From NCBI GenBank assembly GCA_054661495.1, contig BAAFSQ010000104.1, positions 1 through 30,569 on the forward strand: a DNA stretch of 30,569 nucleotides. The letters run 5' to 3'. The stretch comes from Zygophlyctis sp. KS116. Taxonomy: Eukaryota; Fungi; Chytridiomycota. This document shows positions 4,549-30,569 of the stretch, piece after piece; position 1 is the stretch's first letter, and each line of letters begins with the position of its first letter. A program made the translations under genes and the position numbers. The notes below the pieces were generated by a model that searched no databases, was not told where the DNA came from, and worked only from the letters and a program-made list of their open reading frames with translations.

Positions 4549-5574
4549 TTATAAATAATCTGATAAATGATAACTGGCTAAAATCCGTGACTCTTCTTCT
4601 CCTCCAGTTACAAACCTTGGATTACAAGTCTCAAAAGATCCATCACTTTGCATATGTTTGTATAAACATGAAGTTCCAAAAGGGCATGATCCATTTCCAA
4701 AATTGAAATGTTTACAATTGATTTTAGAAAGTTGAGATTGATAATTTGAGACTATAAATGATTTTGTAATTTCATCATCTGGCCAAACAGTTGAAGGTGT
4801 TATGAAAAAAGTTATTGATCTACATATAGGACATGTTTTTGATGTAGAAACTGCTTCTTTACTTCTCCAGGTTCGTATACATTCTAAACAGACGCAATGT
4901 TCACATGATAATAACCCAAATCTTGCATCTTTCTTATTTTTGACAAGTTCCATACAAACTACACATTCCATATTTGAATCTGTCAAGGTTTTAATCTTTT
5001 CTTTTAGAGATTGACAAGTAGAAAAATGTTCTATTTTTTAGAAAATAAATATACCCTGATACTCTTCAATACTTCCTTGAGGATGTAATACTTTTCTATT
5101 ACATAAATGACATTCTAAGCCATGTTTGTACTTGCAATCTTTTCCAAATCTGCAATAGTCCTTGAAGGGGCATAATGGTGTACGATCATCAATTGGAACA
5201 AAGGGTTCAGTTGGCAGTATGTGAATTTCTCCATTATATTCAGCATTAGAATCAGCCTTTGATTCTTGGACTGATAGATTAGAAACTGCATTAGTTTTCG
5301 CCATGTCTGCATACTTTACTTGCACACTAGTTTCTCTTGAAATACTAGAATCGTTGGACTGGCAAACTGATCTGGGCACCGATCTAACCGGTTTGATCGT
5401 TTTAGTTGCTGATTTCTTATTGAGTTTAATGTGCTTGAGCGCACACTTATTTCCGAATCTACAGTCTCCTGTTTGATAATAAAGACAAATACCAGAGTCA
5501 TCATGGACAAAAGGACATTTACTTCCCTTGGTGCATTGCCCAAGAGAATAAAATTTACAACTAATTGAGCTCAT
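4549..5574 (-). CDS. MKRN: Makorin-like CCCH zinc finger / C3HC4 RING E3 ligase, 2 exons
   Basis: Three N-terminal CCCH fingers, a Cys-His motif, a RING (CVVCME..RFGLLSCEHCVCLECIRTWR..CPICR) and a C-terminal CCCH (CKHFNFGNGSCPFGTSCLYKH). 24-nt intron at 5031-5054. Confidence 0.9.
5571..5574 (-). other. Overlapping stop/start ATGA (UTP7 stop / makorin start)
   Basis: Minus strand reads AAG AAA TGA GCT. The TGA ends UTP7 and the overlapping ATG begins MSSISCKFY. Confidence 0.85.
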
Positions 5575-7043
5575 TTCTTATTAAATCTGTCTAATGCTTC
5601 TCTAGGCTTCTCCTTTTTCAAAACCTTTGACTCTAGAGCTGCAAGTTTTTCAACCCTCTTTGAGTCCTTGACATTATTTTGCTTTCTGAGATATCTACGG
5701 AGTGATGATGATTTCCCCTTCATTTTTCTCTTGATCTGGACAGTCTTACCATCACCAATATCTTGTTTTTCTTCTAATCTTTCCTTTTTTAGAACGTGGT
5801 TAGGAGCATCATCAATATTTCCAATTATATTTGGATCCAATGTAATCATTTCAGGTGCAAGTTTCTCTAATAGAGAATGTACTTCAGATTCTTGACGTTG
5901 TTTTGAAGTTTGATAAGGATTTGCTTCCATAGTGTCAAAGTTTGGTTCACCTGATCCAGGAATTATTAATGAAGATACACCTTTTGAATGGCCTAGTCCA
6001 AGGACATCTTCCCAAGGACAAAAGACTAAATCTGAAACTCTTGATCCTTCTTGAATATGCTTCATATATGCATCAGATTGTTTTTCTTTAAATATATTTT
6101 TCCATAAAGAGATATTAGGACCATGTCCAACTGCAAGAATACCTTTTTGACTGATAGATAGATGAGATGCAGGAGAAGGAGTATAATAATGATCAATGAG
6201 CTTAAATGTACGAATATCCCAAATTTTAAGTTGAGAATCTAATCCAACTGTTGCCATATAATTACCAGATAAATCAATTTTCAAATCCTGTATAGGACCT
6301 CTATGACACAACATTTTGACTAATGGAGATGACATACTTGGACTCCAAAGAGTTACAGTTCCATTATTATGTCCTAAATGAATTACTGCATTCCAAGGAT
6401 TTTGAGTCATTGACCTAGTAGGACCTAATTTAGTTCCATGTTCTGCAACTATTTTACCAGTTGAAGTATCTTGATACTTTAACCATCCTGTTTTACCACT
6501 TCCAACCAATAAAAAATGCCAATTTAAGAATTCTAATCTAGTAACATCTATAAAATCCTTTATAGAATGAATTTCTACTCCTTGATTATCATAAATAAAA
6601 GTATATTTCTTTTGTGCAACAGCAAATAACCCAGAATTATGACACCAAGAAACATCATGAATTGATTCTCTAGTATGAATTTCTGTACTTAATTTCCCTG
6701 ATTTCCAATCAAAAGCCGCAACATGACCTTTTTCACCTCCAATCAACATATATCTTGAATTTCTAGTATAATCCATTCTATAAGAACCAAAATCCAAATC
6801 CAACGTAAAAGATTTTTTAATAGAATTTAAATCTAGTGATTTACAGAGTTCTACTTGAGAAACTTTCCAAGTTTTTTCCATTTCATTTTCTGGCTCCAAG
6901 ACTCCAGATTCATTCAACAATAAATGCTGAGAAAGATTTAATTTCTCTATAGATTTCTTGAATTCCTTTTCATTCTTTTGAAGTTTAGATTTAAGTTTCT
7001 TGTCTGATATTTTCTTGAATGATATCGGCCTTGATCTTTCCAT
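5571..7043 (-). CDS. UTP7: U3 snoRNP WD40 protein Utp7/WDR46, intronless
   Basis: 490-aa ORF with WD40 repeats and the BING4CT motif (PGSGEPNFDTMEANPYQTSKQRQESEVHSLLEKLAPEMITLDP). Confidence 0.95.
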   Translation of the reverse strand: MERSRPISFKKISDKKLKSKLQKNEKEFKKSIEKLNLSQHLLLNESGVLEPENEMEKTWKVSQVELCKSLDLNSIKKSFTLDLDFGSYRMDYTRNSRYMLIGGEKGHVAAFDWKSGKLSTEIHTRESIHDVSWCHNSGLFAVAQKKYTFIYDNQGVEIHSIKDFIDVTRLEFLNWHFLLVGSGKTGWLKYQDTSTGKIVAEHGTKLGPTRSMTQNPWNAVIHLGHNNGTVTLWSPSMSSPLVKMLCHRGPIQDLKIDLSGNYMATVGLDSQLKIWDIRTFKLIDHYYTPSPASHLSISQKGILAVGHGPNISLWKNIFKEKQSDAYMKHIQEGSRVSDLVFCPWEDVLGLGHSKGVSSLIIPGSGEPNFDTMEANPYQTSKQRQESEVHSLLEKLAPEMITLDPNIIGNIDDAPNHVLKKERLEEKQDIGDGKTVQIKRKMKGKSSSLRRYLRKQNNVKDSKRVEKLAALESKVLKKEKPREALDRFNKK

Positions 7044-7140: not shown

Positions 7141-7500
7141 ATGTCTAGAGAAAAGATTGAATTCTCTTCAACTACTCCTTCATTCATTAAAAAACTTTTG
7201 GAATCTCCTGTACAGAAACCAGTACCTAAAAAAGAACCCGTAGATGATGGACCTGTGATTGTAAATGAAACTCAAGAAGCTATTAGCCAAGTCCCAAGAG
7301 AAAATAAAATAATAGAAATGGGAGCGCAAAAGTTGAAGAAGCAGATCAAATCCAAAAACTCAAATTCTAAAAATACCCTAGACATTAGCACTACAAGTGG
7401 ATATCAGTCTGGTGGCAGATCAGGTAGACTGTCAGGGAGCAAGATTGAAAAAACAAGAAAATCTATAAAGTTGCTCTCTTTTTCCGACCAAGAAGAGTAA
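7141..7500 (+). CDS. DUF4604 / KIAA1143-like small protein
   Basis: 119-aa ORF with N-terminal PSFIKKL, central DDGPVIV and C-terminal KLLSFSDQEE, a motif pattern typical of this family. Confidence 0.7.
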   Translation: MSREKIEFSSTTPSFIKKLLESPVQKPVPKKEPVDDGPVIVNETQEAISQVPRENKIIEMGAQKLKKQIKSKNSNSKNTLDISTTSGYQSGGRSGRLSGSKIEKTRKSIKLLSFSDQEE

Positions 7501-7567
7501 TGGAAGTTACATGTTTAATATGTAAATCTTATATCCATTTAAGATAATTTTACCGTTGCAATTTTTA

Positions 7568-8788
7568 ATGAAAACGTTTTACCGGAGAGATCTTCCGTCT
7601 GCATTATCATCATTTACATCAAGCAATGGGAAGAGACTATTTAAACAAGCATTGGCACAAGGAAACGCTGAAATTTATTTTAATCTTTCTGGAAACTTTG
7701 TAAATCAGTCTGAACCAGCATACTGTTCGCTAGGGTCATTGGTCATGGTCCTGAATGCTCTTGATATCGATCCAGGCAAAAGATGGAAGGGGGTCTGGAG
7801 ATGGTATTCAGATGAATTATTAGAATGTAAACCTCCAAAAGCACATATTCTGGAAAGGGGGCTCAGTTTAAGTCAATTAGCGGCTCTGGGAAGATGTAAT
7901 GGACTGCAAATTACTGCAAAAAGAGCAGATCAGGTCTCGTTTGAAGAGTTTAAAAGTGATTTATTAGAATCAGTTCAATCAAATTCAAAATATTTAATCT
8001 CAAATTTCTCTAGAACTTATCTTGGTCAGACTGGTGTTGGTCATTTTTCTCCTGTTGCTGCTTATGACTCTATAGATGACCAAGTATTGGTTCTTGATAC
8101 TGCAAGGTTTAAATATCCTAGTTACTTTGTCAATATAAAGGATTTATATAATGCAATGCTAACAGTTGATGAAGAATCTAAATTGTCTAGAGGTTATCTG
8201 ATCTTGTCTAAAGGAGATCTTAAACCAATGTCATTAATTAAACTAAATCATTTGGAACATTGGGATTTAAAATCTCTATTAAATGTTTTTATACCTCAAG
8301 AAATATCAAGGATTCAAAAAAAGGAACAGTTGATTGCTCTACTTTTAAATAACTTCATTAATGAATCGCAGTCTTTTCTTAATATTTCTCCTGGAGTAGA
8401 TCTTGCCGGAACAGGATTAAATAAGGAATACATTAATGATTTACTTAAATTGGACAATCAGATTTTACAGCATCCATTACACAAGATAATTCAGGATGTA
8501 GTAAAGCAAGACTCAAGTTTAGAGTCAAAATCTAAACTCTTCAATTCAAAACATTTACCGTTGGAATCTGGAATGTTTTCATTATTTGCAACTATTACTA
8601 TATTGTGCATGCCATCATCAATGTATGCGAATTCTCCTTTAAAGAATTGGATTATAGATCTGACTAGAATTCCCAAAACTTTTGGCCTTTTACTCGACGA
8701 GACTCAAAGATTATCAGAACAGATTGAGATTATTCTAAACAAGCATTGTACTTGCAATAATAAAAAGGAACAATCGATCCATCTTTAA
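7568..8788 (+). CDS. PCS1: Phytochelatin synthase (glutathione gamma-glutamylcysteinyltransferase), intronless
   Basis: First ATG in frame gives MKTFYRRDLP. Catalytic Cys (QSEPAYCSL), His (GHFSPV) and Asp (LDTARFKYP) are present, plus DPGKRWKGVWRWY. Confidence 0.93.
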   Translation: MKTFYRRDLPSALSSFTSSNGKRLFKQALAQGNAEIYFNLSGNFVNQSEPAYCSLGSLVMVLNALDIDPGKRWKGVWRWYSDELLECKPPKAHILERGLSLSQLAALGRCNGLQITAKRADQVSFEEFKSDLLESVQSNSKYLISNFSRTYLGQTGVGHFSPVAAYDSIDDQVLVLDTARFKYPSYFVNIKDLYNAMLTVDEESKLSRGYLILSKGDLKPMSLIKLNHLEHWDLKSLLNVFIPQEISRIQKKEQLIALLLNNFINESQSFLNISPGVDLAGTGLNKEYINDLLKLDNQILQHPLHKIIQDVVKQDSSLESKSKLFNSKHLPLESGMFSLFATITILCMPSSMYANSPLKNWIIDLTRIPKTFGLLLDETQRLSEQIEIILNKHCTCNNKKEQSIHL

Positions 8789-8804: not shown

Positions 8805-9539
8805 ATGAGAAATCTAAGCTCATTAGCGATAACTGTAGGAACAGTTGGAAATTCATTAAATTTAATTTTTACTGGACATTATGGGGGAACAGCTAATAGT
8901 ATTTTATCAGCGACAACAGTCATGGGCTTATTAATGTTGGGCGATCTATTATCATTTGAAAACTCTTGGAAGAACTTTAAGATTCTAAAGCTGAACGGAT
9001 ATTCTGCTCTCCATGTTCTATCTTGTATATTCTGCTCTTATTTGCTAGCTATTCCTGGGACCCTGATAATGACTGAGATATTTATTGGAAACGATGGGCG
9101 GGTCGTACCATATTTCAACTTTTCTCTTTGTTTATATGTTACAATCTTTATGATCATATCAGAAATAGGATTCTCACTGGGTCATATAATACTACACAGT
9201 TATCTCCCTGGATTACATAGGATGCATCACTGTTGCATTCATGCATCATATCTAACAAACTTTGTATTTCATCCGTTGGATTTGATTTTGGAGTTTGGAA
9301 CTCCAATTCTAATGATTCTCTTGGTTAATTCCATTTTTTTCAATGATGATTATGCTGCATTATGGGCTATATCTATATTGATTTCTTGGTATGCATTGGA
9401 TCATGATGTGTTTCTTCAGTTTAAGCATACAAATCATCATCGTTTTGTTTCAAGTTACTATCATGCTTATTTAGGACTTAAAGGGGATTTCATTCAAGAT
9501 AATGTTAGAAAACTCGTGAAAAGGATTGACAAGAATTGA
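8805..9539 (+). CDS. Fatty acid hydroxylase / sterol desaturase superfamily membrane protein, intronless
   Basis: Hydrophobic helices with di-iron His boxes HIILH, HRMHH and HTNHH, plus FHPLD. Confidence 0.8.
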   Translation: MRNLSSLAITVGTVGNSLNLIFTGHYGGTANSILSATTVMGLLMLGDLLSFENSWKNFKILKLNGYSALHVLSCIFCSYLLAIPGTLIMTEIFIGNDGRVVPYFNFSLCLYVTIFMIISEIGFSLGHIILHSYLPGLHRMHHCCIHASYLTNFVFHPLDLILEFGTPILMILLVNSIFFNDDYAALWAISILISWYALDHDVFLQFKHTNHHRFVSSYYHAYLGLKGDFIQDNVRKLVKRIDKN

Positions 9540-9541
9540 AT

Positions 9542-12500
9542 TTAGTGAGCACTATATTTTAATACAAGGAATGCCATGATTCTATAAAAGAGAAACAGAA
9601 ATACTGCTATTCCAGCATAAAATCCCTTTTGATTTTCATCAAATGGAAAGTTTTCATTTGAAGTTAAAACTGATAAAACCTGAGATCCATTTGTATAAAA
9701 GCAAAGCTGAGATGCAACTTCTTCAGCTGTACACTCTATTATAGTATTTGAGTTGAATTCATTAACAGTAATTAATCGTGTCAAGTATGGAATTGGTGAA
9801 ATATAGTTTAGTCTATCCAAGAATAAAGGCATTTTTGATGACATCAAGCCAGACATTACAACAAAAATTCCTAAGAGAGAATTAGTAATTGAAATAGAAA
9901 ATCCAATATGATCAATCAAGGAGCAAAACGCTATTCCGATGCTTTCTCCAGTAGCAACAAGTAAGAATACTGCATATGTGTCGCTGAAATACGTTTCAGG
10001 GGAGAGATTTAATCCAACTAAAACTACGGCAAACAATGTATAGATCAAAGAGCTGATGATTGCTATAGGAATCTATAAATTAATCAAGTTCTATCACCTC
10101 AATTAAGCAGTAAGCGAGAAAATATGAATCTACAGAATAGATACCATCTGCTCTTTCACGAAAAAGAATATTTTTTTCTGCAGGAAAAACTGCGACGCAA
10201 TTAAGTAGACTAAACATTATAAATTGTAATAAAATACCCAACAAAAAAAATCGCCAATGTTTGCTGTATGACACCAATCTTGTTCTGAACTGAAACCTGT
10301 CCATTCCCTTGACGAGCATAGAATAGAGCTTGAATAACACCTAGAGATACAACCTGCATGATTCTAGAAAAAACTAATATAGGCTGCCGTCGAGTATTCA
10401 AAATACTTCGGCTAAATAGTACAGGAAAAGCAATCGTAAAAGGTGCCTGATTCCTCTGAATTTCTTCATTTGAGTCGGGGATCGAACTTTCAGATGCACT
10501 GACAAGACTAACTGGCCTTTCCTCTTTAATAAATTCATTCCATCTGTATATTATCGCTTCCACTCTTTTCCTTGATTCACTCTCTGCCTCAGCAGTGCGT
10601 AAATCTATGGAGCAGATGTCCAGCAAATAGTCACTTGGATTTGTATGATTTGGTAAGATGTAGCCTAAAGAGCTAAAAAAAGAGAATATATCTACTCTTG
10701 GTCCTAGCATAATTAATCTATCTAATTTTACCTGAATATGCGACTCTCCCGCCGTTGGTTAAAATCATCAAGTTATCAAATATTGGAAAAATGTCAGATC
10801 GAGGTTGATGAATTGAACATATGATCGTTCTTCCAGCTTCAGCCATATTTTTCAAGGATATCATAATATGATGGGCTGTGAATGAGTCTAATCCAGAAGT
10901 GGGTTCATCAATCACTAAAATACTAGGATCAGTTAAAATCTGGACTCCGATACTAAGCCGTCTCTTTTCACCACCACTCAAACCTTTTAATGCTTCATTA
11001 CCAACTACAGTATCAGCACAATGGCGAAGTCCTAGCATCCCAAGAATCTCCTCCGCTCGCACTTTTTTTTCTTCTTCTGTCCATGATTTTGGGAGTCTTA
11101 GCCTGGCTTGATAGTACAGCGTTTCTCTCGCAGTAAGTGCAGGAAGTAAACTTGCATCGTCTTGCCGGACAAAAGCACAGATCTTAGTTATTTCAGAAAG
11201 TCGTTCTTTTTTCATGCCATCAAACAACATTTCTCCAGACTTTTTTAATCGTACCATTGCCCCGTAATTCAGACTACGAGCAGCCAATATAGATAAAAGA
11301 GTACTTTTTCCTGTTCCAGACCCACCAATTATTATTGAGAGAGATTTAGAAGGGAACCGTGCACAGATATTATCCAGGAGAATTTTTCTATCTTCCTTTT
11401 TACCAGTATAAAGCTTCTTCCGTATTAATTCAACTGTTAAATTCTTGAGTTCCACATTTATACGGGCAGCTTTGGTTGTTTTTGCGACACTTTGCAATCG
11501 ATTATGTGCTTTCAAGCTGGAGGCTGACGAAGACGAAACATCTTTGGCATGAGCAACAACCGAATTGGGTCTAATCAGCAAAAATACAGCAGCCACCACC
11601 CAAAATACTAAGAAAATGATGCATAGCGCTAAAAGTGGTTCATAAAAATCATCTATCTTTATCCCCAATTGCTCCAAAATAATATTCCCGTTACACTGAG
11701 GTGATGTGGAGATACAAGAATATGTATTATTGGAGAATTCATTGGCAGCAAGAATTCTATATTGATATGTTAGAAATGATATTTTTTGAATCCAACGAAC
11801 GTAAACCGGCGCAGAATCAAGCTGTTGAAAAAAACCAGTGGAAAATGAGAAAAACGTATATAAACCATTTCCTAATAGAGATGCTAGAGCAAAATCTCGA
11901 AATATGCTAATACAAAAGTACGAAAATGTCACCACAATAAATTGCACAGCAAGGTTAGCGATAAAAAAGCGAAAAAAATGTAATCCAAGTTCATCAGTTC
12001 TAAGTCCAAGCATGAAATACTAAATGTTGGATAAATATTATCATACCATTATTGATGAGTATATTAGAGGAAATAATATGTTAAATGGCAGAGTAGACAA
12101 AAATTGCGCCATCATGTAAGGGATAGTGCCATACATGTTATCTGCTTTTTCCCGATCAAACACTTTCATATCAAGAGATAATTTGTAGATGATAAAAATC
12201 AACATGAGATACGTTTGCATAGACGCAACTATGTACAGAGCAGATCTTCTCGAAAGAACTCCTGGTAATGATTCATCAAGATTGTAAAAAATCGCTCCCA
12301 TTACAGAAGCAATAAATAGAACTTCGAAAAGATTCCCCCAAACCGCCAAGTTATCTCGCTTAAGGTTTGTGAGCGCTCTTCGTAAAAGAATCCATGTTTG
12401 CTGAAATCCATTAACATTGACCGCTTTTTTCGAAATAAGCAATTCATTCTCTTGTTCATCATCTTCTGGCTCAACCTTTCCAAGTTTATTGCTGGAAATA

Positions 12501-13681: not shown

Positions 13682-15385
13682 ATGCCTGATAGTCCAACAG
13701 GATATGAGCAATTAACGAGGGAGTTAGATGACATTAGATCAGATATACATTCAAAGTCAATGATGCATCGGCCAAAGACATTGTCTTGTATGCCTGAAAC
13801 TGACAAGCAGCAGAGAAGTACTTTGACCAGTCCACAAGATGATAGCACAGTATCAGAGACTATAGACTCCCAATGCATTGATCGGCCATTCAGGAAATCT
13901 AATTCCCATGTCAAAGCCAAGAAGAGAGTAGTAATGATTTCTCCCACAAGGACAAATTCTCTTTTCCCAGATTTAGAAAGTACAATCTCTCAGGAAGTTC
14001 ATCAGCATACTCCAAGAATGAATATTGGAAAAGCGTCCAAGGCCCCTCTAGGTATTTTAAAAGTCAATACCAAGATTCCACTTGATTTTAAAAAGGATCA
14101 TATGGGAGTTTTGTATTCTTCAATTTTGGAAGATAAGCATACATCGATGGCAGCAGAAATGGAAAGGAAGGACATTGAGAGGTACGAAAGATGGGATGAA
14201 ATGATTTCTCAGCACTCTCAAGGATGGGATGCAGTGGTGAGTTTATATTTCCTAAAATTTAGTGGGAAGATAGAATTTGGAAGGGAGTACCCCATTCGTA
14301 TCGTAAAAATGTTTGGAATCAAATTCTAAGTATAAATTCTGGTTTTTATTCAAATTTATCGCAAAATCAAAAGAAGTGGGTTAATATGGAACTATTAAAG
14401 AAATTCAAGGTAATTAAAGGATAGATTTATATTTTAGGATATTAAATCATGGGACTTGTCAGATACCACTTTTTCTAAAGAAATTGAAAGAGATGCACAG
14501 GTCACATTGCCTCGTCATGTTACATTTCAAGGTTCAGAAGGGTAAGAGAATTGTATCTTTCTAATTTCTAGAAAACAAATTTTACAACTTGTTTTAAATG
14601 TTTTTTCGATTCATAATTATCAGATTGGATATGTGCATGGTATGAATCTATGGATTGGACTCTTGACGACTTTATTCTCTGATGACTTGGTTTTTTTCTT
14701 TTCTCAAAAACTTTTATATGATAAGCCTCGAAGGGATTCATTTACATCTTTTTATGGTCTAAATCGTCTTTACTTAAAAGATGGAACATTTTTTGATTGC
14801 ACTGTATTTATTCATTCACGTTTACTTGCTCTCTGGTTTCCCAAAATACGAGAACATCTTGAAAATTTTGGTCTATTTCCTTCTCTTTATTTAAAGAAAT
14901 GGTTATTTTCTCTATTTGTTGGATGTTCTGCAGTCTCATACCCTTTATCTACATATAAAAATTCCAATGGTGGATTATTATCCTGGCCAACAGTATTAAG
15001 AATATGGGATTTATACTTATTTTATGGATGGGATATATTAATTATTGTTAGTATATCCATCCTAAAATATTATTCTAAAGAAATCCTTAAAATGGACCCA
15101 GCAACATTAATGGTATTTTTTGGTATTGAAGATGGAAGCATGGAATCCCATGGAGTAGCCACAGACTCTTTACCTTTTATTTCTAATCCTGATAAATTTA
15201 TAGATCTAGTACAAAGCTTGTATCTTGTTGGAAAGAGACACCGCCTCTCAATACTAGGAGACTACCACTCTTCTAGAAATTCTATTGATTCTATTTCATC
15301 TATATCATCAGACTCTAAAGCATTAAGAGGAATGTCTGGAAAACAATTAGTAAACTTTTTCAAAAGCAGCGCAAGGGATAATTAA
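13682..15385 (+). CDS. Rab-GAP TBC domain protein with degenerate catalytic motifs, 4 exons
   Basis: After removing three short introns: RIWKGVPHSYRKNVW, IERDAQVT, IGYVHGMN, LYLKKWLFSLF, VLRIWDLYLFYG. Confidence 0.85.
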
Positions 15386-15491
15386 AGCTATTATTTTCAT
15401 TTTTAAAAAACACTAATACTCTTTAAACTTGTATACTTGATACTTTTCTAAATCTAGATCAAATCTAAACCTTGGGCCATTGTAAAATTCA

Positions 15492-16183
15492 ATGAAAAAT
15501 CTAGTGATTTCTCCTTCTTCTGCCCATAAATCTACAATTATTCTACTTCATGGCCTAGGAGACTCTGGTCATGGATGGCTCAGTGCAGCAGAAATGTTAT
15601 CTCCTTCTCTTCCAAACACAAAATGGATTCTTCCAAATGCTCCAAACATCAAGATCACTCTTAATTATGGTGCTTCTATGCCTGGATGGTATGATATTCT
15701 GTCATTATCTCAAAATTCTAAAGAAGATGAACCTGGTCTATACAAGTCTATTGGGTTCTTATCATCTCTAATTTCTCAAGAAATTGAATCTGGAATTCCT
15801 TCTAATAAAATAATTGTTGCTGGATTCAGTCAAGGAGCTGCTGTATCTCTATTGTATGGTGCTACTACAAATGTTAAACTAGTAATTACTCTAGAATTTT
15901 AAATTTTTAGGGAGGAATTGTATCTCTAAGCGGATATTTACCATTATCAGGTAAAATAAAACAGATTTTACAGGATACAAACAAGTCTACATCTTGGTTA
16001 ATGTGTCATGGTACTCATGATGATGTTGTTAATTATTCTTGGGGTCAAGCATCATGTAAATTATTAAAGGAAAATGGGATAAATGTAGAATTTAGATCAT
16101 ATAAGAATATGGGACATTCTGCATCCCAAGAGGAATTGATGGATGTATTACAGTTTATGAAAACTAATTTATCTGAGTTTTGA
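15492..16183 (+). CDS. APT1: Acyl-protein thioesterase 1 / lysophospholipase, 2 exons
   Basis: LHGLGDSGHGW, MPGWYDI, GFSQG nucleophile motif, CHGTHDDVV and MGHS. 29-nt intron at 15882-15910. Confidence 0.92.
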
Positions 16184-16209
16184 AAGATTTTAGATTTTTG
16201 AGATTTAAA

Positions 16210-19200
16210 ATGAAAAGAAAGACTCTAGATGAGAGTGCAATAGATGATATAGAACAAGATATTATAAATCAAGGATTGGATGTTAAAAGGATTAAAAATG
16301 TAAATATTTAGTCTTATAATAGTGTAATTCTAATGATATTGGAACAATTGAATATATTGAATTGGTAAACTTTATGTGTCATTCCTTTCTAAAGATAAAC
16401 TTGGGACCAAAGATTAATTTTGTTATTGGGAGGAATGGAAGTGGGAAATCTGCAATTTTAACTGCGCTCACTGTCTGTATGGGCGCAAAAGCACATTTTA
16501 CAAACAGAGCTGGGAATTTAAGGTCGCTTTTAAAGGCAGGAAGTTTGGCAGGTTCAATTCAAGTTGCAATTAGGAATGAAGGGGATGATGCATTCAAACC
16601 AAGCGTGTATGGAAAGAGGATTATTATTGAGAGGAAAATAGTCAAGGAAGGTTCATGTGGGTATAGAATTATGGATGAACATAGTATTTTTCTTTTTATA
16701 AATGTCTAGAAAGGACTATCTGTACGAAAAGGGAAACTTTAAATCAAATATTGGAGCATTTAATGATTCAAGTGGATAATCCATTGGCTGTATTGACTCA
16801 AGATACGGCTAGAATGTTTTTAAGTAGTAGTTCTCCACAGGAAAAATATGGGGTAAATGGATTTATTTTAAATTTAGTTGTTTTTAAGAGGAACTGGTCT
16901 CAAGCAGTTGAAGGATGATTATGTAAATATTACAAAGAATATAGTATCTACGCGGCAAATTGTACAATATAAACAAAAGGTAAAAATAAAGATTAATAGT
17001 AGATTCTTCCCGAAATTGAAGATGAGTTGAAAGTCTTACAGCGTAAATGGGAAGATTTAGAGAAATCAAAAGGTTTGGAAGATGAATGTCAAGAGTTGAG
17101 AGATGAACTTATATGGGCGCATGTTCAAGACAAGGAAGAAGTAATATCTTGTTTATTTTATTGCATAGGAACTTCAAAATAAGCAAAGGAATATAGATAA
17201 AATTGAGAGAAAGATTAATCAGAATCGTGAACAAATAATTGAGCCTGAAGGGCAAATTAAAGAAATTGAAACAGAAGAGTCTAATCTAGCAAATATTATT
17301 AATGATCATAAACAGGATCTTGTAAATCTTGCTGAGAGGCAAAAGGAAGTTAGAGCGGATATCTTCAAGATTCAGGGCCAGATTCGTGAAATTACCATTG
17401 ATGAACGTGATATTTCTTCAAGTATAAAAGAGCGCAAAAGTTCTAGTGATTTGATTGCGGCAAAAATTGAGGCTGAGAATCAAAGAATTCAGAATGATAC
17501 CGTGTAAATATTTTATTGATTCATTTTAAAGAGAATTTAGACAAAGGCAAGAAGGACAAATAGAGGAATTTGAAATGCAGAAAAGTCAACTCACTAAAGA
17601 ATCTGACGCTGTAACTTATATATATTTGTTTAATAGACTAGCTTGGAAATGAAAGGGACGCTCTAGAGCAACGATCAGAAAGTATCAAAGCAGAAATGGA
17701 AAGTGTTAGCTCAAATATTGAGCGTTTGAAGAATTCCAGCAGAATTTCTTTGGATAATATTAGAGCTCTAAAAAACAAAAAGACAGAGAAGCTAAGTGCC
17801 TTTGGTAATTCAATGCACCTCGTTATGAAGGATATTTACGCTGCAGAACAAGCTGGTCGATGGAGAGGAAAGAAACCTGTTGGGCCAATAGGTAATTTAG
17901 CGAGTTTTATATCAAAGGAACTCATGTTGAAGTAGTCGATAAAAAGTACGAGAAGGTGATTGAGACCATTTTATTAAACACTTTATCTGGTATGATCGTT
18001 GAAACGAACCAGGATAGAGCTTTGCTACAGTCTATATTAGATAAGCATTCACTGTAATCTTTTGGTTTGGTATCAATTTCATAGGAATAATAGTATTTTC
18101 GTCTGTCCTCAGAAAAGTATCGATCACACAAAAGGAGAACCTGACAATCATTTCAAAACCATACTGAGAGTTTTGAAGGTTGATAATCCTATAGTTTTAA
18201 GAGTGCTTATTATCAACCACAATATTGAAAAGATTGTTTTAGTTGACACAAGAGCAGAGGGAGATCATATAACCGGCAAAGGATTTCCACCAAATGTTGC
18301 ATATGTATATACACAAAATTGTCAGTCAATGGGTGCAAGAGGTGGAGGTTATGCCACTACTTCATTAAAACCATATACCGGGCCTCCACTTTTGGCTGTC
18401 AATATTGATGAGCACATAAAGTATGATTATTCATAAAATTCATGATATAGACAGCATGAAACAAATATTGAACAATTTAAACATCAAGTTCAAATTGAAG
18501 ATCAAAAGCATTATTCTCTGGCAAAGGAATATCAAAATTTACAGAGTCAAAGAGCACTCATTCGGGAGAAATTCAGTGCGTTAGTGCCTCAAATGGATAG
18601 GATTAAATTTGAAATTTCAAATTTAGTTGAAGCACTTCGTGTAATTATTCTTTTTTTATTCTTTAGGAACAAGAACCAGAAAATATTTTAGCTCTATTAG
18701 AGGCAAAGAGCGAAGAAGATGTACAATACGAAGCTCTTTCCCGGCAACTGTCATCTGCTATAGATAACAAAAGTAACTTGACGGGAGAATTTAATAATCT
18801 TTTGGAGGCAGATTCAGAAATAAATCGGAATATGGCGCTACTAAGGGAACAAAACATCTCGCTTGAGGTATCATTTTTGATTTATATTTACTTTATAGCG
18901 TGATCTGGAAACTCTTGCAAATGGAAAATGTAAAGCAGAAGCGCATTTACGGCATTTATCACAAAAGGCTGAGCAATATAATGAATTATTGGAGCAAGAA
19001 AAGTTGGCTCTCGCAACTCAAGAATCAATTGTTGAAGAAGCAATCAATCTGGCAGAAGATGAATGCGATAGAGTAGAAGTAACCGCATCCATGGAGGACA
19101 TCCAACGGAAAATCCTTTCCTTGGAAGCAAGAATACGTGAAAAAGAATCAGAGTACTTTTAATTAATTTTTATGATTCAGATGTGGAAGCAGAGAAGACC

Positions 19201-19891
19201 TTTACAATGAATTGATGAAGAAAAATACCTCTTATGAGGAAAGCAAGGCTCAGCTTGATAGGACAGTTAAATTGTTGGAATTTATGAGTTCTACAGTCAA
19301 AAACAGGGAAGATATTTGGATAAAATTTCGTAAAACAATATCAGTGACTGCTAAAACGAATTTCCGTGATTTCATGAAAAAGAGAGGATACAATGGAAAA
19401 CTTATCCTGGATCATGATAACCAAGCTCTCAATCTTGTTGTAAGAGATGTTATATTGTAATTTGTAGGTCCATATTGAAGACAGCTCCAAATCTGCCTCT
19501 AATGATGAAAATAACAATTCGGATAATGATCCAAAGAGTCTTTCTGGTGGAGAAAAAAGTTATTCAACAATTTGTCTTTTACTCTCACTTTGGGCATCTA
19601 TGCGAAATCCGTTTAGAGCTTTAGATGAATTTGATGTTTTCATGGTAATTTATATACACATAAATACAAAGGATGCAGTCAACCGTCGAATCAGTATGAA
19701 GCTCCTCATAGAGAACTCGCGTGAAGAGTCTTGTCAGTATATATTTATCACACCGCAAGACATGAGGTAAGAAATGATTAGCTAATGATAGTCATATCAA
19801 GGGAATAGATATGGGAAATGACATTCGTATTCACAAATTAAATGATCCTGAGAGGGGTCAAACCACATTAAGCTTTTCAAATAATAACTAA
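16210..19891 (+). CDS. SMC6: Structural maintenance of chromosomes protein 6, about 17 exons
   Basis: NFMCH, Walker A GRNGSGKS, QVDNPLAVLTQD, hinge PVGPIG, signature LSGGEKSYSTICLLLSLW, Walker B/D-loop LDEFDVFMDAVNR, C-terminal IRIHKLNDPERGQ. 16 introns of 23-31 nt (first 16300-16322, last 19767-19791). Stop TAA at 19889-19891. Confidence 0.93.
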
Positions 19892-19893
19892 TG
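19889..19893 (+). other. Overlapping stop/start TAATG (SMC6 stop / PRO2 start)
   Basis: AAC TAA TG: SMC6 TAA is 19889-19891 and PRO2 ATG is 19891-19893. Confidence 0.85.
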
Positions 19894-21243
19894 AATGGTG
19901 ATATTGCAGCGAGATCTCGAAAGGCCGCACTTGAGTTGCAAGTAGCATCTTGTAAAGATAAGTCTGCAGCATTGAGAGCAATCCATAACCAACTGCAAAT
20001 GGATAAAGATCTTGTTTTTAGTTTGAATGAGAAGGATCTAGCCAGCGCTGAAGCTCTTGTTAGTTCAGGCCAATTGTCTCTTCCATTAATCAAACGTTTG
20101 GATCTACGATTACCTGGTAAATGGGAATCGATACTGGCGGGGATCTTACAGATTGAGGGATTGGACGATCCAACCGGTAAGATTCAGTTGGCTTCGCTTT
20201 TGGATGATGGATTGAAAATGTATAGAGTCAGTTGTCCAATTGGTGTTTTATTAGTCATCTTTGAAGCCAGGCCTGAAGTAGTAGTACAGATCAGTTGTCT
20301 CGCAATTAAATCAGGAAATGCTGTAATTTTGAAGGGAGGGAAAGAAGCAAATCAGACTAATGATGCACTTTTCCAATCTATTCAAACTGCACTCAGATCT
20401 CTACCAGAAAATACTCGTATTCCAAGTGATTCGGTACAGTTGGTTTCTACTAGAGAAGAAATCTCTAATCTTTTGAAATTAGATAAATATATTGATTTGG
20501 TCATCCCTAGAGGATCTAAATCTCTAGTTCAGTATGTTCAAGAAAATACACGAATTCCTGTATTGGGCCATGCAGATGGACTGTGTTCAATATATGTAGA
20601 CGAATCGGCAGATGAAGAAAAAACTAAAAGATTAATTATAGATTCAAAGGTAATATATTATTCTTTTATTCTAAAGACTAATTATCCAGCAGCATGTAAC
20701 TCTGCTGAAACGTTGCTAATTCACTCTTCTCGTGAAGATTTACTTGTTAAAATTGCTCAAGAACTCTCAAAATATAATGTTATTATAAAGGCAGATGAAA
20801 AATCTTTTAATATTTTATCTAGAAATCATTCAGAATCAAATTTTGAAAAGGCTATAGACTCTGATTTCGACACTGAATTTTTAGACTTGAAGATTAGTAT
20901 TAAAATCGTGTCAAATTTAAAAGAAGCTATTGATCACATTAATACACATGGATCAAAGCATACAGAACTTATAATTACAGAAGATAAAGAGAATGCACAA
21001 GAATTTATGTCTCTAGTAGATGCTGCTGGTGTCTTTTGGAATGCTTCCACAAGATTTGCAGATGGATTTCGTTATGGATTTGGGGCAGAAATAGGTGTGA
21101 GTACTAATAAAACCCATGCAAGAGGACCTGTAGGATTGGAAGGATTGATGATTTACAAGTATAAAATTTTCGGTGATGGTCATATAGTAGAGGATTATAG
21201 TTCCGGTAAATTAAAATTCAAGCATCTGCCGATTGATAAATAA
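19891..21243 (+). CDS. PRO2: Gamma-glutamyl phosphate reductase, with one in-frame 27-nt intron
   Basis: PIGVLLVIFEARP, KSGNAVILKGGKEA, IDLVIPRG, NYPAACN, NASTRFADGFRYGFGAEIGVSTNKTHARGPVGLEGL. Removing 20650-20676 restores the conserved DSKTNYPAACN. Confidence 0.95.
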   Translation: MNGDIAARSRKAALELQVASCKDKSAALRAIHNQLQMDKDLVFSLNEKDLASAEALVSSGQLSLPLIKRLDLRLPGKWESILAGILQIEGLDDPTGKIQLASLLDDGLKMYRVSCPIGVLLVIFEARPEVVVQISCLAIKSGNAVILKGGKEANQTNDALFQSIQTALRSLPENTRIPSDSVQLVSTREEISNLLKLDKYIDLVIPRGSKSLVQYVQENTRIPVLGHADGLCSIYVDESADEEKTKRLIIDSKVIYYSFILKTNYPAACNSAETLLIHSSREDLLVKIAQELSKYNVIIKADEKSFNILSRNHSESNFEKAIDSDFDTEFLDLKISIKIVSNLKEAIDHINTHGSKHTELIITEDKENAQEFMSLVDAAGVFWNASTRFADGFRYGFGAEIGVSTNKTHARGPVGLEGLMIYKYKIFGDGHIVEDYSSGKLKFKHLPIDK

Positions 21244-21256
21244 TCTTGCGATTTAA

Positions 21257-22343
21257 ATGTCTTTGGAAATAAATGTCTATCCTGTAATTTAGGAAATCAT
21301 AATTCATCTAGTTGACTGAATCTAATCTACGCCGTTTACAAAGCGAACAGTTTGATTCTTATCATTTTTATGATTCAAAAGTTCCATTTATAGAGCAATA
21401 CATTAATCAGCAAGCGCATCTAGCAGTGACTCCAAGAAGCTGTAGGAAATCAGACTTCAAACCACGAACTGATAGCAGCGGTAAATCTAAACGTGCACAT
21501 ATGATGAAAGATAAGGATGGATGTCTATCTATAGTTACAAAGTATTTATTAAAGACTTAATATTTAGAAAGAAAAAGATATCTAGTGATCAGAGCAAAAA
21601 TCATAGATCAGGTACCATTATTAGCGTAATCATAGGAACTCATAAACCAAAGTCTACAAATGACAATAAAATCCAAAAAAAGAATCGGCTGTCGGTACTT
21701 TAGTCTATATAACCATCAGATGAAGATGTCGGACAATCCATTAAACATCAAAAGTAGACTAGGACTTTTTAACAAGGGATGTAGTAGTTCCAAGGCTCTC
21801 ATTGAACGCAGAGGTATTCTTACATTTTTCCTAAAAGAAGCATCTTTACTATCATTTGACGAAGACGGTTTTTTAAATGGATCTCCGACTAAAGACTTGA
21901 AAACTAATGATCGGACAGATCTTATTTCATCATTTTTTCAAAGCAAAAAACCATTAGTTCAGAATGCTAAATCAGATATACAGCCTAAATCCTTTAATGA
22001 ATCAAATGATTCATATCTTAAAAGCCCAAGATTTATCAAAGAAACTAATCAGAAAATGAATCTAGTAGAAAATCCTGATGACCTGTACGTGTACTATAAT
22101 TGTTTATATTTTAGATCAAGCTATAGCATGGACACATTTGGACGATGCTCTCCTAGTCAATGTAAAAATAGAAATGATTGCCAAAGTTCAAAAGTTACTC
22201 TTGATCACTCAAAGGAGAATATAAAAAAACTATCTCAATGCTACATTCCTCAACCGTGGGATTCTGTGCAATATAATCCAGTCTCTTTACCTAGAATTGG
22301 ACCATCAGCCTCAAATTTCAAGTATTCTGCCTTTCGAATTTAA
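21257..22343 (+). CDS. Uncharacterised Lys/Ser-rich protein, multi-exon
   Basis: ATG 21257 plus a 28-nt intron (21284-21311) joins ORF 21312. Further short GT-AG introns link the three overlapping ORF fragments into one frame ending at TAA 22343. Confidence 0.6.
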
Positions 22344-22373: not shown

Positions 22374-22861
22374 TTACTGTACTTGTTCCTTGACTTGATC
22401 ATTCACTTGTTCCTGTACTTCTTCCTTGACTTGTTCCTGCACTTCTTCCTTGACTTCATTGTCAGATCTATATTTTAGCGCAATCTACAATGGTACATTT
22501 TAATTTTCTTCTCTGCAGACTCTTCCTCATCATTTAAACTTTGAGCAGCTCTTTTCCCTTTCCCAGTCTCACCTTTTCTTGGTTCAGACGACACCAAATC
22601 TTTTAAAAAATCTAAATTTGATACTGAATGCACAGTCTTTCTTCTATAATTTAGACTTTAGAATTACAAATGCACTAGAGTAATTTTCTTCTCTCCATGT
22701 AATGATGCAACTGTTGCTGATAACATTTCTTGTATAAACAGCTCCAAAGACTTTGAAACGCAAACAAGTGCACCTACAGCGACTCTTCCAATTTCTTCAT
22801 CTGTCCTCATAATTTGCTTGATCCTAGATGTGGGGAAAGTCGGTTTATACTTTTTCTGCAT
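22374..22861 (-). CDS. DRAP1: Histone-fold negative cofactor 2 alpha (DRAP1/Bur6-like), 3 exons
   Basis: FPTSRIKQIMRTDEEIGRVA..VSKSLELFI..KKITLVHL..LDFLKDLV. Introns at 22644-22667 and 22468-22496. Acidic repetitive tail. Confidence 0.85.
22377..22460 (-). repeat. Degenerate 12-bp coding minisatellite encoding (E/Q)V(K/Q)E repeats
   Basis: Units such as GAAGTCAAGGAA, GAAGTGCAGGAA and CAAGTCAAGGAA translate to EVKEEVQEQVKEEVQEQVNDQVKEQVQ. Confidence 0.8.
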
Positions 22862-22887
22862 TTGATTCCTTTTCGATTCCTAGCCCA

Positions 22888-23294
22888 ATGAGTGACGATT
22901 CTTGCAGTCATTCCCATGCTCCTGAAACTGAAGAAGAGACCCAAGAACAAGGTCATGCCAGACAAGAGAATAAAGATCTTGCAGACATATCTCGGTATTT
23001 AGAAGACGATAGCTTTAAAGATCAGAATACAATCAAATTACCAACTTTTCTCCTTGAAGCAAAAGCAACAACGAGAGCCAAGAGATTAGAAAAGTATTTT
23101 TTAAAGATTTAAAATTAGAGAGAAACAGTTTGCAAGCATAAAAGTTGAAAAAACGCAAGTTGAATTACTGGTAATTTTACAATTGTTAATTCTAGATTAA
23201 GGAATTGGAAATGTCAAAATTAGCTGCTGAAAAACTGCTGAAAAATAATAATGGAGATTTGAATGCAGCATTAAAGGAGTTTATTAAAATATAG
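22888..23294 (+). CDS. HYPK: Huntingtin-interacting protein K-like (NatA-associated, C-terminal UBA-like domain), 3 exons
   Basis: Removing 25-nt introns 23094-23118 and 23171-23195 gives KDLADISRY..EKQFASIKVEKTQVELLIKELEMSKLAAEKLLKNNNGDLNAALKEFI. Confidence 0.8.
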
Positions 23295-23336
23295 TGATCT
23301 AGACTAAATCATTAAGAATGTTAAGAATGAGGGTTA

Positions 23337-23566
23337 CCAATAATAAGGGTTGACCAATTGACTGAGAGCGCTGACTGATTTACATTGGCCTGAATGCCTA
23401 ATCTTGATAGGATATCCCTAATCTGGTAATCAGACAAATTAAAGAAAGCCTTGGCTTGAGTTGACTGATTCCCATCTGAAAATATTCGTGATTTTAATTT
23501 ACAGGCTACGCTTTTTGTCTCAGCGGAACAAGTGCCACTATGAAGCAGCACCGCTGCCATCCTTAA
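23337..23566 (+). promoter_or_regulatory. Candidate cyclin upstream regulatory region: 3 CCAAT boxes, 3 TGACTGA motifs, a hairpin and a uORF
   Basis: CCAAT at 23337 and 23354, ATTGG at 23384; TGACTGA at 23359, 23372 and 23462; stem at 23521-23556; uORF at 23540-23566. Confidence 0.4.
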
Positions 23567-29316: not shown

Positions 29317-30569
29317 ATGGAAATGGATCGGGCTGCTAAAAGAAAATTAATAGCAAAGGCATATGAGCAACTTTCTGATAAAAGCAAGTTATCAGACACT
29401 GGTGAATATTTGGGCTTATGGGGATACTTACACAAGAGACAGACTTTAAAAAAGACACAGTCACTACCTAATAAGCATAGAGGATTAATTACTTGCTCAA
29501 ATGAGGAATATATGCAATTATATTTGAAATCAAAACGAATGAAATCAATGTTATCACAACTTCCAGTACAAACAACAACGAATCTGTCGATAGATCTGTC
29601 AAGATCTGATAATAATCTTCTTCCCGAAATTAATTCTAAAACTGAAAATGTACAAAAAATAATGGAATCTTGCCAGAAGACAATGGAAAAGTCTCAAGTA
29701 GAGGTGTCCGATCTACAATTAAATGGGCAGTTAATACAATCAGAAAAGAAATTCAAGAAAAAATCGCATTCCCGCAAGGACAAAAATACAAAAGTGCCTC
29801 AATCGCCCATAGATACGCCAAAGAGGAAAGATAAAAAGAAAAGAGTTAAAAAAGAAAGGATTTTAGATGATTTAGAAATCACAGTTTCAACACAAGAAGT
29901 CCATTATTATCAGTATTCTGCTGATGCTGATCACAATAAATTGGAAACTCCGCTAATAGTTGTGGCAGAAGACAATTTTCCAGCAATAAGTGATAATAAT
30001 GGTAGTAGTGCAAATATACTTTCAAAAGGAGGCTCTGAGTCTCAACTTTTAAATTCAGGGAATCAAGTTCAGCCCGATTATGCCCAATCATTCAATAATT
30101 TACGTCGTCAATGCCACGTTGATCATGGTATTTTCTCAAAAGTAAGAAATGCTGCTAAATTCTCACTATCTGTCCGTGATCAAATAGATACAAGACGAAC
30201 TTCTAAATCCATCGGCAACGCTGTTGATTCTCAAAATCAATTAGACAAGACTAGCCGACCAGTTAGCCATATGTCTCTTGCAGAAGATAATTCTAATGTA
30301 GGTGTTGCAGTAAAAAGCAAAAATGATTTGGTTTGTACTGAAGACGAACACAAGTTTTCTCAAAGCAACGGTCGTCGACAAAGCCACGTTGATCATGGTA
30401 TTTTCTCAAAAGTAAGAAATGCTGCTAAATTCTCACTATCTGTCCGTGATCAAATAGATACAAGACGAACTTCTAAATCCATCGGCAACGCTGTTGATTC
30501 TCAAAATCAATTAGACAAGACTAGCCGACCAGTTAGCCATATGTCTCTTGCAGAAGATAATTCTAATGT
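29317..30569 (+). CDS. Uncharacterised protein with 90-aa tandem repeat, 3'-truncated by the window end
   Basis: Stop-free frame from ATG 29317 (MEMDRAAKRKLIAKAYE) to the end of the window. Missing from the ORF track because it has no stop codon. Confidence 0.7.
   Translation, partial: MEMDRAAKRKLIAKAYEQLSDKSKLSDTGEYLGLWGYLHKRQTLKKTQSLPNKHRGLITCSNEEYMQLYLKSKRMKSMLSQLPVQTTTNLSIDLSRSDNNLLPEINSKTENVQKIMESCQKTMEKSQVEVSDLQLNGQLIQSEKKFKKKSHSRKDKNTKVPQSPIDTPKRKDKKKRVKKERILDDLEITVSTQEVHYYQYSADADHNKLETPLIVVAEDNFPAISDNNGSSANILSKGGSESQLLNSGNQVQPDYAQSFNNLRRQCHVDHGIFSKVRNAAKFSLSVRDQIDTRRTSKSIGNAVDSQNQLDKTSRPVSHMSLAEDNSNVGVAVKSKNDLVCTEDEHKFSQSNGRRQSHVDHGIFSKVRNAAKFSLSVRDQIDTRRTSKSIGNAVDSQNQLDKTSRPVSHMSLAEDNSN
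30113..30569 (+). repeat. 270-bp-period tandem repeat (about 1.7 copies visible)
   Basis: 30113-30299 is identical to 30383-30569 (187 bp, starting GCCACGTTGATCATGG). Confidence 0.95.

Follow-up and report, generated by a model that had tools for sequence, protein, structure and literature searches.

A stop-start overlap between SMC6 and PRO2 in a chytrid-related fungus, kept in a diverged relative and probably a product of genome compaction

The stop codon of SMC6 and the start codon of PRO2 share a nucleotide in the window (by which we mean the whole 30,569-nucleotide stretch of DNA that was analysed), and we asked whether this overlap is real, whether it is kept elsewhere, and whether it points to coupled translation of the two genes or to the packing of genes that are transcribed independently. 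The organism appears to be related to the Rhizophydiales, as judged from one gene: in a tree of PRO2 built from 48 selected rows, the window sequence groups with two environmental sequences (100/98), and it falls within a starred clade (98/89) that includes Terramyces, Globomyces, Kappamyces and Gorgonomyces, a set that we take to be the order Rhizophydiales. The best named matches of SMC6 and of UTP7, another gene in the window, are likewise chytrids, and the sequencing runs that contain this DNA are mostly freshwater metagenomes (among 20 runs).

SMC6 is predicted to occupy 16210..19891 (+), with about 1,080-1,090 codons and 15 or more introns, each 23-31 nt long; the Pfam domain SMC_N lies in the first large exon, and the homologues are named SMC6. 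Our model is the minimal set of introns that yields an open frame, with an in-frame intron at 19645-19671 added on top. The introns are A/T-rich, some have AAG acceptors, and no branch motif was obvious in them; they are unusually small for a fungus of such intron density. The last intron, at 19767..19791 (+), is a sequence prediction of 25 nt with GT..AG borders, placed there in the earlier note on this DNA as well, and a 23-nt intron lies at the same position in the relative described below. The last exon, at 19792..19891 (+), is 100 nt long, and its coding role was assigned from a homologue motif and from the alignment with that relative. This exon encodes IHKL.DPERGQ, a motif typical of the C-terminal end of chytrid SMC6 proteins. 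Several AGs are present near the acceptor (19781, 19791, 19801 and 19808), but because the motif fixes the frame, every acceptor that keeps the frame reaches the same TAA; the caveat that a different 3' splice pattern would remove the overlap therefore does not apply here.

PRO2, the gene for glutamate-5-semialdehyde dehydrogenase (gamma-glutamyl phosphate reductase), lies at 19891..21243 (+) and is about 60% identical to chytrid enzymes. From the ATG at 19891-19893 the frame runs uninterrupted for 450 codons, including a predicted in-frame intron of 27 nt (20650-20676) whose nine residues are missing from the named homologues. Comparison with 120 homologues each agreed with the claim that both termini at the junction fall where homologues end and begin: SMC6 has 11 residues past DPER (5-20 in homologues, the motif being present in 107 of 120), and the PRO2 N-terminus is slightly shorter than most, with a small offset of +1 to +6 in 87 of 120.

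At the junction itself, the sequence TAATGA (19889..19894, +) comprises the SMC6 TAA at 19889-19891, the PRO2 ATG at 19891-19893, which has one A in common with it (a -1 overlap), and a backup TGA in the SMC6 frame at 19892-19894, immediately 3' of the TAA and absent from the earlier note. Just 5' of its ATG, the PRO2 frame is closed by a pair of TAA codons, at 19882 and 19885 (19882..19887, +), which leave no earlier in-frame start for PRO2 and block an SMC6-PRO2 fusion by way of a frameshift or an upstream PRO2 exon. Contigs from two other studies, neither marked as the origin of the window, span the site: X4 record 5 covers 19586-20004 with 2 differences and X6 record 20 covers 19426-20287 with 13 differences, and in both the bases 19880-19894 are identical to the window. 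A tail codon, 19877-19879, is altered in one strain and the junction is intact. The sharing of a base as TAATG, as first reported, is thus upheld by the sequence and by these bridging contigs.

We also found the junction in a diverged relative. In a metagenome scan with an SMC6 exon that returned 80 loci, one locus, L001, was the sole one to match any other ORF of the window. Over 361 codons of SMC6, L001 is 71% identical to the window in protein, with a pS of 0.77 and only 39% identity at four-fold sites (31/80), so that synonymous sites are saturated, and intron length differs in four of the five SMC6 introns compared. The SMC6 stop of L001 is at the same codon but is a TGA, and it overlaps the PRO2 ATG as TGATG (the full junction being TGATGA), with the -1 register exactly kept; the first 22 residues of PRO2 are identical at 15 positions, and L001 also keeps the backup TGA and both of the PRO2-frame stops. 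From this structure, kept at such divergence, we conclude that the arrangement is long-standing and that PRO2 truly begins at this ATG. The SMC6/PRO2 overlap is therefore a real feature that is kept in a diverged relative, and the -1 register as TGATG in L001 is, together with a second overlap in the window, what is new here.

How much this conservation says about function is a separate matter. There are no indels across the 383 aligned codons (361 of SMC6 and 22 of PRO2), the ATG fixes the last base of the stop, and just two tail codons lie between the last conserved residues and the stop region, all of which make the conservation less telling. The -1 stop has been retained though the backup stop at -4 would permit drift, and the chance of this is roughly 0.1-0.2, a figure derived from the presence of TRATG at 2 of the 19 starts without overlap; whatever the gene, some selection acts on its stop codon. 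A fixed ATG and the lack of indels offer a simpler explanation of the conserved overlap than the mixed arrangement considered below.

The possibility that the overlap is an artefact, whether from an assembly error, an SMC6 end or PRO2 start other than those modelled, or a fusion of the two proteins, is largely refuted, and we give it almost no credence. That the gene models are sequence predictions leaves this reading some room, but independent contigs bridge the site, the structure is the same in L001, the termini match those of homologues, and PRO2-frame stops lie upstream in both species.

We modelled 21 genes in the window by eye; most are supported by Pfam, and several starts are provisional. 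A second stop-start overlap is present on the minus strand at 5571..5574, where the UTP7 TGA and the start codon of a makorin-like CCCH/RING gene overlap as ATGA. This assignment comes from homologue termini: UTP7 ends 3 residues past ALDRF (1-10 in most homologues showing the motif), and the makorin-like protein has its first CCCH finger at residues 6-25, with full-length relatives beginning at similar positions. When the UTP7 junction was sought in other DNA, genome contigs gave one irrelevant bacterial match and viral contigs gave none. UTP7 is apparently intronless at 5574-5700 (-), and its closest environmental relatives, P0242-P0244, seem to be broken by introns near the C-terminus; a recent loss of introns in UTP7 is possible. 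A candidate third overlap, at 7498-7502, where the stop of ORF119 is followed by TAATG, was rejected, the phytochelatin synthase domain beginning at the ATG at 7568. That phytochelatin synthase gene (7568-8788, +) is a single exon in a chytrid-related genome and has a Pfam E-value of 1e-77.

Tight spacing is found in all three orientations. The starts of a head-to-head pair, at 22861..22888, are 26 nt apart; the minus-strand gene encodes a histone-fold protein with CBFD_NFYB_HMF and the plus-strand gene carries UBA_HYPK, for which BUR6/NC2-alpha-like and HYPK-like are labels that we assume from these Pfam domains. The two ATGs were picked by inspection; another ATG, upstream at 22828, would run over the coding region of the opposite gene. 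The stops of a tail-to-tail pair, a fatty-acid-hydroxylase-like gene and an ABC-2 transporter gene by Pfam, are 2 nt apart (9539..9542), so that their 3' UTRs must be nearly absent or extend into the coding strand of the neighbour. Around the SMC6-PRO2 pair itself, 26 nt (16184..16209, +) separate a carboxylesterase/thioesterase gene, identified by Pfam, from SMC6, and 13 nt (21244..21256, +) separate PRO2 from the next gene, whose start was chosen by inspection. A diverged contig (X6 record 24, about 85% identity, depth about 3) has small indels at 21255-21265, at this latter junction. Five co-directional genes are consecutive at 13682-22343, with spacers of 106, 26, -1 and 13 nt. Over the whole window the spacers of the 11 co-directional pairs are -4, -1, 13, 16, 26, 67, 68, 97, 99, 106 and 189 nt (median 67), those of head-to-head pairs are 26, 36, 97, 170 and 212 nt (the 36 rests on an unverified ORF), and those of tail-to-tail pairs are 2, 26 and 37 nt. 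Throughout the window, therefore, spacers are too short for separate terminators and promoters in all three orientations.

Two overlaps of -1 or -4 among 11 co-directional pairs have a probability (of two or more) of 0.03-0.09 under a null of exponential spacers. Because one of the two was the finding for which the window was selected, the fair figure is that for one more overlap among the other 10 pairs, which is about 0.2-0.4 (by hand, with p at 0.024-0.048 per pair); allowing for the choice of this window, the second overlap loses its significance, and an excess of overlaps beyond what compaction gives is not shown. In a run-on simulation on the starts of the window, deeper overlaps were 3-4 times commoner than those of -1 or -4, yet both overlaps in the window have exactly the offsets known from prokaryotes and viruses and none is deeper, a pattern for which coupling and selection against double coding are equally good explanations. 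Among 19 non-overlapping starts, TRATG occurs in 2 and ATGA in 6, which supports the view that start contexts of this kind can alone supply stops. Short overlaps are also described as arising by chance in simulations (PMC3887535).

We then compared the junction with known signals for coupled termination and reinitiation. Stop-starts of the TURBS class are described as lying -8 to +6 nt apart, the commonest in viruses being UAAUG, UGAUG and AUGA (PMC11921876), and both TAATG in the window and TGATG in L001 are within this range. TURBS motif 1 (UGGGA) is not conserved, since the TGGGA at 19812-19816 is TGGGC in L001; words of this type number 61 in the window against 51 expected, and none is present in the 400 nt upstream of the UTP7 stop. 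For a paired element such as P1, which in TURBS closes 12-24 nt before the stop, folding of the RNA against shuffles gave nothing significant (z of -0.78, -0.14 and -0.75), and the consensus fold of the two sequences contains a weak stem of 7 pairs with 2 double changes, at -6.8 kcal/mol overall, which does not enclose the UGGGA. TURBS action also involves complementarity to the helix 26 loop of the host 18S rRNA, and yeast is described as requiring an altered motif (PMC11921876). With motif 1 lacking, the SMC6/PRO2 junction is not a member of the TURBS class. Coupling as in the hypovirus CHV1 needs no motif 1 (PMC2699510, PMC5972666), so these negatives do not suffice to reject a CHV1-like mechanism.

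The sequence before the starts does carry some signal. The 15 nt before the ATG had a leave-one-out mean score of -0.4 at 17 starts against -3.6 at 151 internal ATGs (p 0.0015), reflecting an A/T context; this score mixes promoter elements with translation context and cannot tell them apart. The makorin-like start scored above 99% of the 151 internal ATGs and the PRO2 start above 93%, whereas the PRO2 start of L001 was at the 51st percentile, no better than the internal ATGs. Words of the AATAA type occur 9 and 6 nt before the SMC6 stop, and such words lie 6-9 nt 5' of the SMC6, L001 and UTP7 stops. Overall, 7 of 17 stops have one nearby, compared with 17% of coding windows, an enrichment partly due to the TAA stops themselves, and these words point only weakly to poly(A) signals within coding tails.

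Our preferred explanation, to which we assign a probability of roughly two in three (0.68), is that the overlap results from extreme genome compaction of the kind seen in microsporidia, with PRO2 transcribed from inside the last exon of SMC6 and the SMC6 mRNA ending within PRO2. Deletions would have eaten the spacer between the genes until any further loss would cut into protein, leaving the junction at -1. Transcription of PRO2 would begin no more than a few tens of bases from the end of the final SMC6 exon, which we infer also carries a core promoter and short 5' UTR for PRO2 and possibly the SMC6 poly(A) signal; the PRO2 mRNA would be capped, with a very short 5' UTR and ordinary scanning, and the SMC6 mRNA would be cleaved inside PRO2, possibly by way of the AATAA-like words near its stop. 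RNA that reads through both genes is probably present to some extent, though most PRO2 protein would come from elsewhere. Three things would keep the junction in place: the third base of the stop is set by the ATG, indels in coding sequence are rare, and both genes use these bases.

What speaks most strongly for ordinary transcription is geometry. Genes arranged head-to-head or tail-to-tail cannot share a polycistronic mRNA, and the signals of such pairs must be tiny or lie inside neighbours, and a head-to-head pair 26 nt apart means that starts in this genome need almost no free DNA; an overlap of -1 is then the co-directional limit of the same compaction. In Encephalitozoon cuniculi, 5' UTRs under 7 nt and overlapping transcription at more than 80% of tested loci are described, as are a head-to-head pair 35 bp apart and signals within the adjacent coding sequences in its 9 overlapping pairs (PMC2803860), and its transcripts are said often to begin in upstream genes (PMC3629993). 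Four observations count against compaction as the explanation: the exact -1 in L001, the median start context of L001, the small number of coding overlaps in E. cuniculi, and the restriction of the window's overlaps to -1 and -4.

The chief rival is a dicistronic mRNA on which termination and reinitiation are the main route to PRO2, the 40S subunit staying after the UAA and restarting at the overlapping AUG as in CHV1. Of the two options that the earlier note had offered, the one that placed the PRO2 promoter and 5' UTR inside SMC6 and ran the SMC6 3' UTR into PRO2 fits the evidence best, and the one that invoked coupling fares worse, having neither a conserved TURBS motif nor a significant RNA fold, joining genes of unrelated function, and being set among head-to-head and tail-to-tail junctions that are equally tight and for which coupling offers no account. 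Reinitiation does draw support from the geometry, which is that of the commonest viral stop-starts and is kept in L001 although TAA has become TGA, from the second stop-start at UTP7, and from the pyrimidine at -3 of the PRO2 start in both the window and L001, TURBS reinitiation being described as indifferent to Kozak context. SMC6, a DNA-repair gene, and PRO2, a gene of proline synthesis, however, have no complex or pathway in common, the spacers of 26 and 13 nt that flank this same pair indicate that tightness is not special to the junction, and in a dicistronic mRNA the SMC6 stop would be followed by 1.35 kb of RNA with a splice junction in it (20650-20676). Such a long spliced stretch 3' of a stop is a typical substrate of nonsense-mediated decay. 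SMC proteins are also scarce relative to metabolic enzymes. Given the low rates of reinitiation described for CHV1 (2.5-4.4%; PMC2699510) and for caliciviruses (3-20%), a scarce SMC gene upstream would be a poor sole supply of a metabolic enzyme such as PRO2. In Arabidopsis, read-through RNAs are described as suppressed by nonsense-mediated decay (PMC9768141), prokaryotic coupled pairs are described as often encoding subunits of a complex (PMC10666635), and cellular mRNAs are described as very seldom reinitiating behind a long ORF (PMC5972666). In favour of reinitiation, fungal ribosomes are able to restart at UAAUG when no TURBS motif is present (PMC2699510, PMC5972666). A further point against it is the separation of the two genes elsewhere: by eye, SMC6 and PRO2 are on contigs of differing size in all 12 of the named chytrid species that are in both hit lists (some rows pool strains, and no Rhizophydiales are in both), so that their adjacency looks lineage-specific. 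On balance we regard reinitiation as the main route to PRO2 as unlikely, and the broader proposition that this lineage uses bacterial-style stop-starts, with TURBS-independent reinitiation on spliced multi-gene mRNAs for both PRO2 and the makorin-like gene, as doubtful.

Intermediate arrangements were also weighed. PRO2 might have its own promoter and be subject, in addition, either to substantial reinitiation on read-through mRNA or to interference from SMC6 transcription, with selection keeping this state. Mono- and polycistronic forms are described as coexisting in E. cuniculi (PMC2803860), read-through in mushroom fungi may repress the downstream gene (PMC4503453), and such an arrangement would account for the exact conservation in L001; as noted above, that conservation has a simpler account in the fixed ATG and the indel-free alignment, and we consider the mixed arrangement improbable. 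Much more improbable is a polycistronic precursor resolved by spliced-leader trans-splicing, internal ribosome entry or leaky scanning of the algal type. The series of five co-directional genes with short spacers would suit it, but about 73 AUG triplets lie upstream of PRO2 in the spliced SMC6 model, which excludes leaky scanning; for trans-splicing, the nearest AG (19871-19872) is lost in L001 and there is no AG in the 13- and 16-nt spacers; and a search of the window for Rfam families found none.

Among known systems, the locus would most likely work like the overlapping transcription of microsporidia. As described for Encephalitozoon cuniculi and Antonospora locustae, these organisms share with the window spacers that leave no room for signals, head-to-head pairs in close proximity, an A/T-rich stretch immediately 5' of the ATG, and starts and ends inferred to lie inside neighbours (PMC2803860, PMC3629993). 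They differ in that the present fungus is chytrid-related and has many tiny introns, in that no CCC/GGG motif was evident by eye 5' of the window starts, and in that transcript overlap, described there at tested loci, is here implied by geometry for the head-to-head and tail-to-tail pairs. For E. cuniculi, 9 coding overlaps after re-annotation among about 2,000 genes are described (PMC2803860), compared with 2 of 11 tandem pairs in the window.

Viral and retrotransposon reinitiation (the TURBS of caliciviruses and influenza B, the UAAUG of CHV1, the AUGA and pseudoknot of victoriviruses, and SART1) has the identical stop-start spelling and a long first ORF, and CHV1 shows that fungal ribosomes are capable of it, but the genes in the window are cellular, nuclear and intron-containing, may have promoters of their own, and are without a conserved UGGGA or significant structure. 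Prokaryotic coupled overlaps of -1 and -4 have the same geometry (TAATG/TGATG and ATGA) in co-directional pairs; here the system is eukaryotic and cap-dependent, the partners are unrelated, and their adjacency was not found in the named chytrids. The polycistrons of Agaricomycetes and green algae are likewise of closely spaced, co-directional nuclear genes, yet the gaps described there are about 200-360 nt (PMC4503453 among the sources) rather than -1, and in mushroom fungi polycistronic RNAs are described alongside independent transcription of each gene (PMC4503453). Green-algal bicistrons are described as depending on leaky scanning through first ORFs that are short and AUG-depleted, with medians of 291-357 nt (PMC11892635), whereas the first ORF here, SMC6, is about 3.3 kb long and rich in AUGs.

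If the overlap is the product of compaction, it would bring packing of a microsporidian grade, with coding sequences that touch or overlap, into an intron-rich, chytrid-related fungus, and a handful of codons would have to act at once as protein tail, promoter, leader and 3'-end signal. Such loci will be mis-modelled by gene predictors that bar overlap on the same strand. Were reinitiation to be the true mechanism, this would be a conserved cellular case between two ordinary full-length genes, which is treated as an open question in reviews (PMC10275272, PMC5972666), and the cellular equivalent of a process demonstrated to date chiefly in viruses and retrotransposons. Our search of the openly licensed literature turned up no description of stop-start overlaps between nuclear genes of chytrids.

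Several other features of the window are recorded here. The ORFs at 23321-23560 (-) and 21257-22343 (+) fill gaps between known genes and had no Pfam match above the cut-off; we list them as putative genes. The last open frame, which had no Pfam match and continues past the end of the window, contains at 30086-30569 two near-identical copies of a coding repeat of roughly 290 nt (about 98 residues). Finally, the 3' end of the histone-fold gene (22395-22460, -) encodes a short tandem peptide repeat that is EEVQEQVK-like.
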